7,126 nucleotides of DNA from the IMG/VR virus record IMGVR_UViG_2706794670_000012; one strand, written 5' to 3'. The DNA is from a virus (taxonomy: Duplodnaviria; Heunggongvirae; Uroviricota; Caudoviricetes). This document shows, one piece after another, positions 183-5,416 of the stretch. Each line of letters starts with the position of its first letter. Position 1 is the first letter of the stretch. The notes beneath the pieces are model-generated. The model saw only the letters and a program-made list of their open reading frames with translations, was not told where the DNA came from and did no database searches. A program made the position numbers and the translations under genes.

Positions 183-581
183 GTGATGGTGGCGACAAAC
201 GATCCGGAACGCCCGGCCCCGGATGAAAGCGTGATTAACGCAGTCAGGGACCACATCCTTCCTCTGGCACCTGTTGCCGGAAGCGGATTGTATGTATTCG
301 GTGCCACAGAAAAAGTCATCCCGATGACGATTGCATTATCGAAAGACACACCGCAGATCAGGACTGCAATAAAAGCAGAGCTGAATGCACTGATGTTACG
401 GGATGGTGTGCCAGAGGGGCGTATGTATCTGTCCAGAATCAGTGAGGCCATCAGTTTGTCTGCTGGTGAAGTGGCCCACCGGTTAATCGTCCCTTCATCG
501 GATATTGACCTGGGGGAGACCGAGCTTCCGGTGCTCGGCGAGATCACCTGGCAGGCTTATGACCCGGCAAGGAGTAAATAA
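183..581 (+). CDS. Baseplate J-like protein (Mu gp47 / P2 gpJ family), C-terminal portion; probably disrupted, because protein-like sequence continues upstream in frame to 69 and is preceded by an in-frame TAA at 66-68
   Basis: Longest ORF starts at GTG 183 and ends at TAA 579-581, overlapping the next gene start (TAATG). The same frame upstream (69-182) translates as VGSITGGADPDYVIWAKEVQGINRAWTFRHWKGTGTVG, which resembles the conserved mid-protein motif of baseplate J-like proteins as I recall it. No ATG/GTG/TTG lies between 69 and 183. Its position directly upstream of a DUF2313-like gene matches Mu-like baseplate gene order. Family assignment is from memory. Confidence 0.55.
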   Translation: MMVATNDPERPAPDESVINAVRDHILPLAPVAGSGLYVFGATEKVIPMTIALSKDTPQIRTAIKAELNALMLRDGVPEGRMYLSRISEAISLSAGEVAHRLIVPSSDIDLGETELPVLGEITWQAYDPARSK

Positions 582-1171
582 TGGATTCGTTACAGGATGA
601 TTATACAAAGCTGCTGTACGGACTGATGCCGCCGGGGCCTGCATGGTCAGATACCGACGGTGTACTTGACGGTCTGGCACCATCGCTTGTGCGTGTTCAC
701 CAGCGGGCTGATGAACTGGTGATTGAAATCGATCCCGGTCAGTCCACAGAGCTGATTGAACGTTATGAAGAATTGTATGGTTTACCTGATTCCTGTTCCC
801 CTGTCGGAACCCAGACATTACGCCAGCGTCAGCAACGTCTTGAAGCAAAAGCCAATGTGGCTGGTGGCATAAATGAGCAGTTCTTCCTGGATCAGCTTGA
901 GGCGCTGGGATATACCGGCGTAACGATCGAACAGTTCCAGCACTTGGATGCAAGCCCCGATCCGGAATGGGGAGATCGCTGGCGTTATTTCTGGCGTGTG
1001 ACGTTGCCGATGGATGCCGGTGCTCAGTGGCAGACATGCACGGACGCCTGCAACACACCGATCCGGACGTGGGGGGATACGGTTGCGGAGTGCGTGATTA
1101 ATAAATTATGTCCGTCACACACCGTCGTTTTATTTTCCTATCCAGATGAGGATGAAGATGCACAGGATTGA
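581..1171 (+). CDS. Phage tail protein, DUF2313-like (Mu gp48-like / e14 YmfQ-like)
   Basis: 196-aa ORF with AAGGAG (569-574) 6 nt upstream of ATG 581. The start overlaps the upstream stop by 1 nt. The C-terminal ...WGDTVAECVINKLCPSHTVVLFSY resembles the conserved end of Mu gp48-family proteins as I recall them. It sits between a J-like gene and a tail fiber gene. Confidence 0.75.
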   Translation: MDSLQDDYTKLLYGLMPPGPAWSDTDGVLDGLAPSLVRVHQRADELVIEIDPGQSTELIERYEELYGLPDSCSPVGTQTLRQRQQRLEAKANVAGGINEQFFLDQLEALGYTGVTIEQFQHLDASPDPEWGDRWRYFWRVTLPMDAGAQWQTCTDACNTPIRTWGDTVAECVINKLCPSHTVVLFSYPDEDEDAQD

Positions 1172-2198
1172 TACGCTGACTGCGGTAAAAGATAAGTTTG
1201 GTCCGGGTAAGAACGGATTTACTGACGGAAATCTTCGCACAGGACGTCTTGCTACCTGGCTGAACAGTGCCATGTGGAATGCCATTCAGGAGGAAATCTG
1301 TGGTGTCATTGAGAAGGCCGGGATAGAACTGAATAAAGAAGAACACGACCAGCTATATAAGGCTATATTATTGCTGGTGGGCGGTGCAATTAACGAAGAG
1401 GCATTGCTGATAAAAAATAACCTTTCGGATGTGGAAGACAGGGATGAGGCTGTTGAAAACCTCGGATTAAAACCCACGGTGGATAAGGCAAAAAATGCCG
1501 TTCAGCGTGATGGCGACACCATGACCGGAGAGCTGAAAATCCGTGGTGTTAATGCGCTGAGGATTTTCAACGAAGCTTTTGGCCTGATTTTTCGTCGTTC
1601 GGAAGAGTGCCTGCACCTTATTCCCACCAGTGAAGGTCAGGGGGAAAATGGCGATATTGGTCCCCTGCGCCCGTTCACCATTAATCTGCGGACGGGTGAA
1701 ATATCCATGTCGCATAAAGTGTCTGTTGGCGGTGGTTCGCAGGTCAATGGTGCGCTGGGTATCGGCGTTCAGAACGCCCTGGGGGGGAATTCAATTGTTC
1801 TTGGTGATAATGACACCGGATTCAAACAGAATGGTGATGGCCTGCTGGATGTTTATGCCAATAGCGTGCATGTGTTGCGTTTTCAGAGTGGCAGTATCCA
1901 GAGTAATAAAGCTGTAAACGTTACAGGACGGGTAACACCGTCAGACTACGGAAACTTTGATGCCCGTTACCAGCAGCGAAATGGTGGCGTGCAGGATGTG
2001 CGGTATGGTTATGAAATGTATTACCCCCCCGGCAGTAACACCGTTTCGTGGACATTTCGCTCACCTTCGGGACACGGGCTGTCAGGGATATCGATATCGG
2101 ATACCGGCCGTAACTCAGCGGATAACGTCAACGGCGTGTATTACCGACCGCTGCAAAAACTGATTAATGGCACCTGGTATAACGTAGCGAGTATTTAA
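1158..2198 (+). CDS. Tail fiber protein (short fiber, 346 aa from ATG 1158) with a C-terminal domain of the P2 gpH / Mu S / P1 S type
   Basis: C-terminal segments (NAVQRDGDTMTGEL; NALGGNSIVLGDNDTGFKQNGDGLLDVYANS; GNFDARY; YRPLQKLINGTWYNVASI) closely parallel the conserved C-terminus of P2 gpH as I recall it. In-frame ATGs lie at 1146, 1152 and 1158; only 1158 has a GAGG (1148-1151) at suitable spacing. The ORF track's longest version starts at 1146. Confidence 0.85.
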   Translation: MHRIDTLTAVKDKFGPGKNGFTDGNLRTGRLATWLNSAMWNAIQEEICGVIEKAGIELNKEEHDQLYKAILLLVGGAINEEALLIKNNLSDVEDRDEAVENLGLKPTVDKAKNAVQRDGDTMTGELKIRGVNALRIFNEAFGLIFRRSEECLHLIPTSEGQGENGDIGPLRPFTINLRTGEISMSHKVSVGGGSQVNGALGIGVQNALGGNSIVLGDNDTGFKQNGDGLLDVYANSVHVLRFQSGSIQSNKAVNVTGRVTPSDYGNFDARYQQRNGGVQDVRYGYEMYYPPGSNTVSWTFRSPSGHGLSGISISDTGRNSADNVNGVYYRPLQKLINGTWYNVASI

Positions 2199-2200
2199 CA

Positions 2201-2746
2201 ATGTTGCATTTAAAAAATATTACGGCAGGTAATCCGAAAACCGCGGAATAATATCAGCTGACAAAACAGTATGATGTCACCTGGCTTTTTTCGGAAGACG
2301 GCAAAAACTGGTATGAAGAACAGAAGAACTTTGCCAGTGACACCATAAAAATGGTTTACACCGGAGACGGGCGCGTGGTGTGGGTCGGTAAGGATGTGAC
2401 AGGCATTGAACCCCGTAACGCCAGTGTTATTGAAGTTCCTGATATTACCGCCAACCGCCGCATTACCGCGCCGGGTTACTGGTTTTACCGCAATGATGAA
2501 TTTGTCTTTGACTACAGACTCAAAGCGGAAGATGAGCGTGATGCCCTTCTGGCTCAGGTCAGTGCCCGGACAGGGGAATGGGAAGAAGACCTGCTGCTGG
2601 GGCTAATCAGCGACGAAGACCGGGAAAAACTGAAAGCGTACCGTATTTACGCGAAATCGCTGCAGGCGATGGATTTCAGCACCATCACTGATAAATCCTC
2701 ATATAACGCCATTGAATGGTCCGTCTCTCCGGAAGGTTCTTCCTGA
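2201..2746 (+). pseudogene. Tail fiber assembly protein (Mu U / e14 Tfa-type chaperone) interrupted by an in-frame TAA at codon 17 (2249-2251); longest intact ORF is 2351-2746 (131 aa)
   Basis: ATG 2201 sits 2 nt after the fiber gene stop. The frame reads [65 protein letters not shown]..., which is colinear with the N-terminus of Mu U-type assembly proteins (MMHLKNI..NPKTKEQYQLTK... as I recall). The TAA falls where homologs have Gln. No ATG/GTG/TTG exists in frame between the stop and ATG 2351, and there is no RBS before 2351. Confidence 0.7.
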
Positions 2747-2769
2747 TTTAATTTATCGCGAGAAAAACT

Positions 2770-4038
2770 ATGTCTGTAGTGATATCAGGTGCGCTGACTG
2801 ATGGCGCAGGCATCCCCATGTCCGGATGCCAGATTATTCTGAAATCCCGTGTAAACACCTCAGAAGTGGTGATGCGTACCAGGGCTGATGTAGTGACCGG
2901 AAATAACGGTGAATATTCGTTTGAGGCACAGGTCGGAAAATATTGCGTGTATCTGAAACGGGACTGGCGCGACGAGTACTGTGTTGGCGACATTGCTGTA
3001 TACGACGACTCAAAGCCCGGCACGCTGAATGACTTTCTGATTGCTCCTGATGAGGGCGACCTGAAACCGGATGTCGTCAAACGCTTTGAGGAAATGGTGG
3101 CGCAGGCGCAGCAGAGCGCCGGGGCCGCAGCCGGAAACGCACAGCAGACGGCGCAGGATGTGGCGGCAGCCGCAGGTTATGCCCGCGCAGCAGAGCAGGC
3201 CAAAAATGACATTGATGCTGCGCTGACCGGCACTCTGAAAACGGCTAACCATCTGTCTGAAATCGCAGCAGCAGGCGAAAAGGCACAACAGAAGTCCCGG
3301 GATAATCTGGGGCTGAAAAGTGCGGCCACGATGGAAGCACAGAGCGACATTTACGACCGGACAAAAGGCCGTCTGGCGATACCCGGCGCATTCGGCTTTG
3401 GGTGTGCTTTTCTGCCTGAAGATGTTATCCGTTTTGACACTAAGAGTGATTTCCTGGCCTGGGTAAGGAATGCGCTGCCAGGTGAATATTCCGTTGCTGG
3501 CCCCTACGACATCATCATACCCGACACACGGTTTGAAGGGGTGCTCAGCATCCGGTGGACTGATGCACGCCCTGAGACAACAGAACCGAGGTACAGAGCC
3601 AAATCCCTTACTTTTTACGGCATTAACGGCCCCATTTATCACACCCGCTACTGCTACTGGCCCATATCCAGACTGACTGGCTGGGTGAAAATAAATATAA
3701 CCACAGAAGATATTATTTACAGAATCGTGGCGAGCTCTGTCTGCAACAGATGGGGAGACCCTGACATTGGCGGGCTGATTATTGCTGCGTACCAGGGAGA
3801 AGCTGACGGTGATAAAGTCATCAGACTTGTCAGGGGGCAGTCATACAGAGGCTCACGACTGGGACCGGTGGGGATTTCAGTGCCCAGTACTCCCACCGGA
3901 ACGTATATAGCATCCCCACAATTTTTCATTACGGGATGTTCAGAGCATTCATTACCGGGGTCATATAGCGCCCTGTCCGGGGTGCCGGATGCTCATGTCT
4001 CTGGCGCAATGCCCGGGCTTTTTATTCGCACATCGTGA
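2770..4038 (+). CDS. Side tail fiber protein with a lambda Stf / StfR-like N-terminal domain, an Ala/Gln-rich central segment and an unrecognised C-terminal (presumed receptor-binding) domain
   Basis: 422-aa ORF. The N-terminus MSVVISGALTDGAGIPMSGCQIILKSRVNTSEVV...VYDDSKPGTLNDFL parallels the N-terminus of lambdoid side tail fibers (MAVKISGVLKDGTGKPVQNCTIQLKA...VYEDSQPGTLNDFL as I recall), followed by an Ala-rich region typical of fiber shafts. The last ~230 aa are not familiar to me. Confidence 0.8.
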   Translation: MSVVISGALTDGAGIPMSGCQIILKSRVNTSEVVMRTRADVVTGNNGEYSFEAQVGKYCVYLKRDWRDEYCVGDIAVYDDSKPGTLNDFLIAPDEGDLKPDVVKRFEEMVAQAQQSAGAAAGNAQQTAQDVAAAAGYARAAEQAKNDIDAALTGTLKTANHLSEIAAAGEKAQQKSRDNLGLKSAATMEAQSDIYDRTKGRLAIPGAFGFGCAFLPEDVIRFDTKSDFLAWVRNALPGEYSVAGPYDIIIPDTRFEGVLSIRWTDARPETTEPRYRAKSLTFYGINGPIYHTRYCYWPISRLTGWVKINITTEDIIYRIVASSVCNRWGDPDIGGLIIAAYQGEADGDKVIRLVRGQSYRGSRLGPVGISVPSTPTGTYIASPQFFITGCSEHSLPGSYSALSGVPDAHVSGAMPGLFIRTS

Positions 4039-4048
4039 GGAATGCACC

Positions 4049-4855
4049 GTGGAAATTAAAAAAATCATTAATCCCCGTTATACCGAAAGTGGCGCAGTAG
4101 ACTGTGACGTTTTTTTTGACGACAGGGACCAGGCAGTCCCCTACACAGCCACCGCTGATGATGTCGCACCGACGGGTCAGCGAATCTGGCAGGAACTGCA
4201 AAGTGGCAAATGGGGTGAGATAGCCCCATTCACTGTGACACCAGAAATGCTGGAAGCGGCCAGAGAGGCCAGACGTCAGGAAATTGAAGCATGGCGCACA
4301 GAACAGGAGGCGAAGCCGTTCACGTTTGAATGGAACGGTCGTATCTGGAATGCTGGCCCCAACTCACTGGGCCGCCTGTCCCCGGTAGTCATGCTGGCAA
4401 AATCTGTCACAGCACAAACNNNNNNNNNNNNNNNNNNNNNNNNNNNNNNNNNNNNNNNNNNNNNNNNNNNNNNNNNNNNNNNNNNNNNNNNNNNNNNNNN
4501 NNNNNNNNNNNNNNNNNNNNNNNNNNNNNNNNNNNNNNNNNNNNNNNNNNNNNNNNNNNNNNNNNNNNNNNNNNNNNNNNNNNNNNNNNNNNNNNNNNNN
4601 NNNNNNNNNNNNNNNNNNNNNNNNNNNNNNNNNNNNNNNNNNNNNNNNNNNNNNNNNNNNNNNNNNNNNNNNNNNNNNGATGCCGATAATCAGCAGGTGA
4701 AACTGTCGATGCCGGAACTGGAAGAACTGGCGGCAGCAATGGTGCAGGCGCAGGTCGATCGCAACGATGAGATTTATCGCCGTCAGCGTGAAATGAAAGA
4801 GGAGCTGAGTGGTCTGGAGGATTTGGGAACAATTAGAGCGTTTGATGTTACGTAA
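4049..4855 (+). CDS. Putative tail fiber assembly/chaperone protein; ORF spans the 259-N assembly gap, so length, continuity and even single-gene status are unverified
   Basis: GAGGA (4037-4041) lies 7 nt upstream of GTG 4049, immediately after the fiber gene stop (TGA 4036-4038). The ORF-track start at ATG 3989 would overlap the fiber gene by 50 nt and has no RBS. Position directly downstream of a fiber gene is the main argument; the sequence (...TPEMLEAAREARRQEIEAWRTEQEAKPFTFEWNGRIWN...) is only loosely chaperone-like. The pre- and post-gap segments are in the same frame only by virtue of the arbitrary gap length. Confidence 0.45.
   Translation: MEIKKIINPRYTESGAVDCDVFFDDRDQAVPYTATADDVAPTGQRIWQELQSGKWGEIAPFTVTPEMLEAAREARRQEIEAWRTEQEAKPFTFEWNGRIWNAGPNSLGRLSPVVMLAKSVTAQXXXXXXXXXXXXXXXXXXXXXXXXXXXXXXXXXXXXXXXXXXXXXXXXXXXXXXXXXXXXXXXXXXXXXXXXXXXXXXXXXXXXXXXDADNQQVKLSMPELEELAAAMVQAQVDRNDEIYRRQREMKEELSGLEDLGTIRAFDVT
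4420..4678. other. Assembly gap (259 N)
   Basis: Uninterrupted run of n characters from 4420 to 4678. Confidence 1.
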
Positions 4856-4901
4856 TTGGTAAGCTGCATCGTGTTAAATTGTTACCCTTATTTACAACTA
4901 G

Positions 4902-4935
4902 AAAAGCCTCTGACTTCATAATCAGAGGCTTTTTT
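4902..4935. terminator. Rho-independent, probably bidirectional terminator at the end of the tail-fiber operon
   Basis: AAAAGCCTCTGA (4902-4913), 8-nt loop, TCAGAGGCTTTT (4922-4933), forming a perfect 12-bp stem with a GC-rich core, followed by a T run to 4935. The A run on the 5' side gives a U tract for the opposite strand as well. Confidence 0.6.
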
Positions 4936-4936
4936 G

Positions 4937-4952
4937 AAATGCACGTGCATTT
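4937..4952. repeat. Perfect 16-bp palindrome AAATGCACGTGCATTT; candidate protein-binding site, function unknown
   Basis: The sequence equals its own reverse complement. It lies between the terminator and the ssrA 3' end. Confidence 0.9.
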
Positions 4953-5053
4953 TGCGTGTATATTTTTGTCTTTTTCTGGTCCGCTTACTGTCTGGTCAGT
5001 GTCCGTAAGTGACTGTTTTTATAGTCTCTGTCCGGTTGCAGTCCTGTCAAAAG

Positions 5054-5416
5054 TGGTGGAGCTGGCGGGAGTTGAACCCGCGTCCGAAATTCCTACATCC
5101 TCGGTACTACATGCTTAGTCAGTCTTTACATTCGCTTGCCAGCTGCGGACGGACACGCCACTAACAAACTAGCCTGATTAAGTTTTAACGCTTCAACCCC
5201 AGGCAGGGCTTCCACGCGATCTCTTTTGGGTTTGACCTCTCTTGATCCCCGTCCTAAGAGCGGAGGCTAGGGAGAGAGGGCTCTAAGCAGGTTATTAAGC
5301 TGCTAAAGCGTAGTTTTCGTCGTTTGCGACTATTTTTTGCGGCTTTTTACGAGGCCAACCGCCCCTCGGCATGCACCTTGGGTTTCGCAAATCCCGTCGA
5401 ATCCAGAATCAGCCCC
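5054..5416 (-). ncRNA. ssrA: tmRNA (transfer-messenger RNA, SsrA), 363 nt
   Basis: The reverse complement of 5054-5416 reads GGGGCTGATTCTGGATTCGACGGG...GGGTTCAACTCCCGCCAGCTCCACCA, matching the E. coli tmRNA as I recall it over the full length. The tag-peptide reading frame GCAAACGACGAAAACTACGCTTTAGCAGCTTAA (ANDENYALAA-stop) lies at 5295-5327 on the minus strand. The tRNA-like 3' end finishes in CCA. Confidence 0.97.

Follow-up and report, generated by a model that had tools for sequence, protein, structure and literature searches.

Background

Tail-fibre tips set the host range of phages, and most families of tips in enterobacterial prophages are uncharacterised. In phage lambda, the side tail fibre Stf is followed by the gene for its chaperone, Tfa, and the Stf-type anchor domain (PF08400) binds the tail tip. 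The Alteromonas phages V22 (gp26/gp27) and A5 (gp8/gp9) pair a fibre with an intermolecular chaperone of the DUF4376 type, described as a 'transient chaperone cap', and V22 gp27 is needed for the production of active receptor-binding fibre (PMC7289586). These fibres are laid out as shoulder, stem, neck, one or more knobs and head, with knob duplication in some of them, and the knobs are similar to the ones in the fibre of R2 pyocin (PMC10579305). The fibre of the Campylobacter prophage CJIE1 is a receptor-binding protein only if the downstream DUF4376 gene is co-expressed (PMC7882524), and RBP1 and RBP2 of phage phi812 are chains of similar "tower" domains that end in a tip (PMC13433997). The pairs closest to the one described here are L56/L57 of phiP27, tail3/tail4 of Rac-SA53, gp69/gp70 of pPE4 and gp0076/gp0077 of Av-05, the tips of which are known from sequence, with no experimental characterisation.

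The window, which is the whole stretch of 7,126 nt analysed here (IMG/VR record IMGVR_UViG_2706794670_000012), shares the gene order of the phiP27-type pairs: at the right end of a Mu-like tail module, a first fibre and its Tfa are followed by a second fibre with a PF08400 anchor and by a DUF4376 gene. A sequence-only reading had singled out positions 3250-4038, in the second fibre gene, as an unfamiliar C-terminal domain and a candidate novel receptor-binding domain. We consider it probable that this stretch encodes the distal end of a side tail fibre, comprising a junction, a knob and a receptor-binding head, which is matured by the DUF4376 chaperone and belongs to a mobile cassette.

Results

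State of the prophage

The window contains plus-strand late genes of a Mu/phiP27-type contractile-tail prophage (Table 1), in which the Stf-type PF08400 anchor is found on a Mu-like tail. We take positions 1-82 to be an IS1 end, with the terminal inverted repeat on the reverse strand, on the basis of the known IS1 terminal repeat; IS1 transposase genes are adjacent in the S. sonnei loci, and multi-copy phage-type matches in other genomes begin at position 84. The prophage is an IS1-truncated remnant bounded by IS1 and ssrA, and S. sonnei-type chromosomes match the window with 99.7-100% identity. S. sonnei is highly clonal, so the repeated occurrence of an identical sequence says little about selection.

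Two fibre/chaperone pairs are encoded. The PF02413 gene belongs to the first fibre and not to the fibre under study, and it contains an in-frame TAA at codon 17 (2249-2251; 'TAE*YQL' in place of the 'TAEQYQM' of E. coli C311), with a 131-aa ORF remaining from the ATG at 2351; it is therefore probably a pseudogene. A scan of positions 2100-5100 for sigma-70 promoters returned no sites, consistent with a position of the second fibre gene within the late operon. The two strong, adjacent hairpins that lie past the DUF4376 stop codon and before the ssrA 3' end (-29.2 kcal/mol for both together, z -7.0) probably terminate both the phage late operon and ssrA read-through. A terminator scan also picked up the second of them. 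The first hairpin is flanked by an A-run and a T-run and could be bidirectional.

Table 1 Features of the window discussed in the text
Feature	Position	Strand	Basis or remark
Baseplate J/gp47 gene, 3' part	truncated by IS1 (1-82)	+	
YmfQ/Mu gp48 gene	581-1171	+	PF10076
First fibre	1146-2198	+	PHROG 6859
Tfa chaperone gene of first fibre	2201-2746	+	PF02413
Fibre ORF under study	2770-4038	+	422 aa, intact
N-terminal anchor domain, lambda Stf type (residues 1-131)	2770-3162	+	PF08400 match
Ala/Gln-rich shaft and conserved junction motif (residues 132-200)	3163-3369	+	composition; junction conservation
Knob, sub-domain A (residues ~201-314)	3370-3711	+	helix and five strands in model
Head, sub-domain B (residues 315-422 and stop codon)	3712-4038	+	always C-terminal; conserved core motifs, variable loops
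DUF4376 gene, probable fibre chaperone	4049-4855	+	both flanks match PF14301
Two hairpins with T-runs, end of fibre/chaperone transcription unit	4899-4961	+	fold energy, terminator scan
tmRNA gene (ssrA)	5054-5416	-	followed by smpB, ratA

Anchor, shaft and junction of the second fibre

The N-terminus described earlier as Stf-like matches PF08400 over residues 1-131 with E 2.4e-63 (212.6 bits against a curated gathering cut-off of 26.6). In a search of PDB sequences, residues 1-92 align to a tail fiber protein chain (9e7m, E 4.6e-17), the anchor shared with lambda Stf, and residues 1-198 to a collar spike protein (7kjk, E 1e-6). The ribosome-binding region upstream is intact. The Ala/Gln-rich shaft is likewise borne out, as Ala and Gln make up about 32% of residues 132-200. 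It leads into a conserved motif of ~40 residues, LSEIAA.GE.AQQ.SRDNLGLKSAATM..QSDIYDRT.GRLA.PGAFGFG, which is common to fibres with different N-termini (PF08400 or PF12571), and the shaft/junction segment is likely to be a recombination joint. The sequence 'RLAIPG' marks residue 201 (nt 3370). Thus, the tail placed from position 3250 (residue 161) onward is real and was rightly called unexplained, but its first ~40 residues are conserved junction and the variable part begins at about 3370.

The compositional remarks of that reading also hold for the last 222 residues, where there are four Cys and five Trp and where a search for HxH motifs and Gly-rich repeats found none; residues 201-422 contain 10.8% Gly and only one GG dipeptide. 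A relative that is 99% identical across residues 161-422 has Arg in place of C212 and C325 and Cys in place of S400. Since the Cys positions vary among near-identical relatives, Cys content is uninformative about disulfides. Trp231 and Trp305 are invariant or nearly so among the relatives.

A known but uncharacterised family of tips

Does the tip resemble any fibre tip already described? The claim that it does not is contradicted by PHROG 2636 ('tail fiber protein'), which matches the whole protein with E 7.8e-205 and the 262-aa tail alone with E 2.8e-112 (profile positions 300-567 of 568). The phiP27-type tips fall in the same PHROG, and tblastn detected C-terminal segments of 31-36% identity in phiP27 L56, Rac-SA53 tail3, Av-05 and relatives, in the stf of SerU-LTIIb and in Actinobacillus phage pPE4, together with a partial tip match inside a fibre of phage Goslar. 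In large protein collections, 143 relatives were found, and metagenomes contributed 104 representative clusters at 50% identity. The named relatives are mostly from Escherichia, Shigella, Salmonella and Citrobacter, and they carry the tip module on N-termini of the PF08400 or the PF12571 (tail-collar fibre) type. A near-identical gene is present in 10 of 5,426 complete E. coli genomes, annotated there as "prophage tail fiber N-terminal domain-containing protein", and the exact 422-aa protein is annotated on 674 contigs under a name referring to Shigella sonnei, many Shigella entries being partial and stopping at contig ends. The Actinobacillus pleuropneumoniae phage vB_Apl-pPE4 (L005, 1795-4361) and coliphage phiP27 have tips 98% and DUF4376 proteins 85% identical, a closeness that is surprising for a phage of Pasteurellaceae; recent transfer, a receptor in common or an erroneous host assignment could account for it.

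Curated models and solved structures give a different picture, as no Pfam or NCBIfam domain model and no solved structure covers the tip region. Pfam returned no match to the C-terminal tail at E<=0.1 and, in a scan of 32 diverse relatives at E<=1, nothing but one chance match to T2SSJ; NCBIfam had no match to the whole protein, the tail or the chaperone fragment. In the PDB sequence search only the N-terminal part of the protein aligned, the tail having no match, and a profile of 32 tip sequences likewise found none. Phage_fiber_2 (PF03406), Collar (PF07484), gp37 repeats, His boxes and a Gly-rich adhesin were sought in the tip and were absent. An adhesin of the T2/S16 gp38 type was rejected, as its polyglycine-rich segments are absent from residues 201-422. 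The clear family match is therefore to an uncharacterised family (PHROG 2636) and not to a characterised one. Judged from these comparisons of sequence, the tip is a member of a recurrent, annotated and experimentally uncharacterised fibre-tip family and no new kind of element, and a divergent receptor-binding domain of a Stf-like fibre, as was suggested, is the best-supported reading.

Structure of the knob and head

Mapping the query onto all relatives revealed two units. Unit A (residues ~182-312) occurs singly or, in fibres of 500-1,000 aa, with one or two extra tandem copies, while unit B (residues ~315-422) forms the C-terminal end in every case. An hhalign comparison of the knob profile with the head profile was not significant (probability 0.6%), and the two sub-domains are thus not an internal duplication.

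For the structure prediction that had been recommended, AlphaFold2 was given an alignment of 33 sequences; the resulting model is confident over residues ~215-422, with block pLDDT of about 70-93. In the model, the knob consists of a helix and five strands and is joined by a linker helix to a head of six strands, which is predicted to be all-beta. Foldseek comparison of this two-domain model with the PDB found nothing at E<=1e-3 (best match 5m9f, E 0.013), and the structural matches listed are 5-16% identical and have large rmsd values, which is to be expected when multi-domain proteins with hinges are aligned. Among these matches are the C-terminal domains (tower domains and tip) of Staphylococcus phage 812 RBP1/RBP2 and phage K gp144, at 11-16% identity; the hosts of these phages are Gram-positive, and the likeness is that of a generic fibre building block, not of family membership. 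The head, that is, the last ~108 residues, has no detectable fold match among solved structures. The tip can therefore be called novel in this narrow sense only, given that the exact protein is already annotated.

Conservation in the head is concentrated in GGL.LAAY, RG..(Y)PGS.L, LPG.Y.ALSG and GLF.R, with variable segments between them, and most of the invariant tip residues are Gly, Ala or aromatic, which is typical of a structural core. The variable loops are a candidate receptor-binding surface.

The DUF4376 partner gene

The strongest functional clue is the adjacent DUF4376 gene. A DUF4376 (PF14301) protein, 187-193 aa long where intact, is encoded directly 3' of the fibre in 11 of 11 loci: the window, E. 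coli FDAARGOS_944, E. coli C311, phiP27, Av-05, Rac-SA53, pPE4, a Mu-type E. coli prophage, two P2/HP1-type prophages (E. coli and Salmonella) and a lambdoid Citrobacter prophage, in which the fibre follows gpJ and Lom in the Stf position. The pair is thus found on lambda-type, P2-type and Mu-type tails. The arrangement recurs in three additional S. sonnei loci, in one of which the DUF4376 call is shortened.

In the window, the gene begins with a GTG at 4049, preceded by GAGGAA at 4037-4042; the RefSeq start of the equivalent gene in FDAARGOS_944 (L001) is an upstream ATG that corresponds to window position 3989. A run of N at 4420-4678 (259 nt) hides the middle of the gene. In its place, only 16 nt (GCATATGGCGTGGGGT) are present in S. 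sonnei chromosomes, whose identity to the window is 99.7-100% elsewhere, so the window is 243 nt longer (81 codons, in frame), through either a masked insert or a scaffold gap. The profile of the window-type chaperone aligns to V22 gp27 with a probability of 82%, and by analogy with the V22 and CJIE1 systems the DUF4376 protein is a probable fibre chaperone.

Divergence and mosaicism

Another important question is how the two partners have evolved relative to each other. Between the window type and phiP27, the knob and head are 27% identical and the chaperones 75%. Across the phiP27-type pairs, the knob and head are only 27-35% identical to those of the window, whereas the chaperones are 73-78% identical, except in Av-05 (35-37%); in temperate enterobacterial pairs generally, tips are 27-45% and chaperones 64-82% identical, the lambdoid Citrobacter partner reaching ~50%. 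On these identity values, the tip diverges much faster than its chaperone partner. The phiP27-type fibres are also longer (490-1061 aa against 422), with extra shaft or knob copies.

Individual relatives are mosaic in opposite ways. One (P0002) is identical in the shaft (69/69) and nearly so in the knob (113/114) and head (106/108), with an N-terminus only 59% identical; in another (P0055) the N-terminus is 83% identical, the knob 55% and the head 41%. This mosaic pattern is the expected signature of a host-recognition module swapped by recombination at a conserved junction.

E. coli C311 (L013, 4187-7053) also has a prophage of this type, likewise at the ssrA site. Its second fibre, of 759 aa, has a far longer shaft, rich in Ala, Gln and Glu, and another member of the knob and head family, followed by the DUF4376 gene. 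The second fibres of C311 and the window thus represent fibre replacement within one prophage backbone.

Discussion

The side tail fibre is presumably trimeric, with the junction, knob (~201-314) and head (315-422) at its distal end. The head, with variable loops on a conserved beta core, most likely binds a host-cell surface receptor, and the DUF4376 protein encoded immediately downstream would mature the fibre, probably as an intermolecular chaperone acting at its C-terminal end. The knob and head together with the chaperone would form a mobile cassette of two genes; by recombination at the conserved junction it would become joined to different N-terminal anchors and would so serve lambda-type, P2/HP1-type and Mu/phiP27-type tails.

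How closely does this arrangement follow the described systems? Lambda Stf/Tfa has the same anchor and the same logic of a fibre with a downstream chaperone; the partner in the window is a DUF4376 protein, as opposed to the Caudo_TAP (PF02413) or gp38 partners of lambda and T4 tips. The CJIE1 H-fibre is, as here, a Mu-like prophage fibre with a downstream DUF4376 partner, and its N-terminus is of the DUF3751/P2 gpH type, unlike that of the window fibre. The layout of stem, knob or knobs and head with a variable number of knobs is, as far as the model allows a comparison, common to the Alteromonas fibres and the window family. An hhalign comparison of the tip profile with V22 gp26, on the other hand, reached a probability of about 3% (3.2%) over 33 columns, confined to the junction LGL..AAT...GAFG.G; this is not significant, and homology of the fibres is therefore not claimed. 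The N-terminal anchor and the host clade of V22 also differ from those of the window fibre, and the V22 and A5 heads are reported to be lectin-like (AP22 gp53), a match that the window head does not show. The window system would thus work like that of V22, by analogy, with a fibre that lies outside the V22 sequence family.

Does the fibre still function? We give about even chances to the possibility that the ORF is a relic whose product is no longer assembled into particles, its intact sequence being due only to the youth and clonality of the lineage. The prophage is cut by IS1 in its baseplate J gene, the first fibre's Tfa gene is interrupted, many Shigella entries end at contig borders and the exact sequence recurs on the 674 contigs named for the clonal S. 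sonnei. Yet the 422-aa ORF, the ribosome-binding region, the flanks of the chaperone gene and the terminator are all intact, and even a cryptic fibre cassette could still be rescued by recombination with infecting phages. This possibility is about what the fibre does today and does not conflict with the ancestry proposed here; given its position in an IS1-truncated remnant next to ssrA in an S. sonnei-type chromosome, the cassette probably no longer builds virions.

Three other readings concern what the C-terminal region does. It could be purely structural, as distal shaft or as a collar/whisker decoration, with the other fibre (1146-2198) or another protein recognising the host; the two fibre/chaperone pairs, the likeness of the N-terminal domain to a collar spike protein and the mostly structural role of knob and tower domains in solved receptor-binding proteins would fit. 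We think this unlikely, because the head always forms the free C-terminus and varies more than any other part while the chaperone is conserved, because the same cassette is the Stf-position fibre beside gpJ and Lom in a lambdoid prophage, and because the V22 and CJIE1 fibres served by DUF4376 chaperones are receptor-binding proteins. An enzymatic tip, a depolymerase or esterase with O-antigen or capsule as its substrate, is very improbable: the sub-domains have ~110 residues each, show no beta-helix and match no catalytic family in Pfam or NCBIfam, the invariant residues are mostly those of a structural core, and the structural matches to tailspikes are partial alignments with long rmsd. Slightest of all is the chance that the last ~100 residues are an intramolecular chaperone cleaved after trimerisation, as in T5 pb1 or the K1F endosialidase. 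The module is C-terminal with conserved motifs, and the published work on Alteromonas phages likens DUF4376 chaperones to such domains; against this, Peptidase_S74 or any other Pfam match is lacking in the protein and 31 relatives, the head is predicted to be all-beta and not a helical intramolecular-chaperone body, a separate chaperone gene is always present and the head is hypervariable, unlike such chaperones.

A bolder version of the receptor-binding reading, which we regard as doubtful, holds that the head (~315-422) is a receptor-binding fold absent from solved structures and that the pair is a distinct, portable host-range cassette with an unusually conserved chaperone, used in three tail architectures. 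Conserved chaperones (64-82%) on diverged tips (27-45%) would then imply that the chaperone recognises only GGL.LAAY, PGS.L and GLF.R. If the chaperone reads only such core motifs, the cassette would be a convenient scaffold for host-range engineering. With its conserved junction, the knob-head-chaperone cassette would suit fibre swapping in lambda, P2, Mu and pyocin scaffolds, and once defined it would give annotators a named domain.

For the window itself the biological consequence is small, since the prophage is a decayed remnant, and the tip, as a recurring family found in a decayed Shigella-type prophage remnant, is ordinary despite the ~100 outer residues that match no solved structure. 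The tip family is common in prophages of Shigella and of E. coli, both enteroinvasive and Shiga-toxin strains, the Stx2e phage phiP27 being one example. In E. coli FDAARGOS_944 (L001, 14020-15661), the fibre/DUF4376 cassette is followed by a frameshifted T3SS effector gene of the ipaH type (ipaHe), and the tail-fibre end of this prophage type thus serves as a cargo site for virulence effectors.
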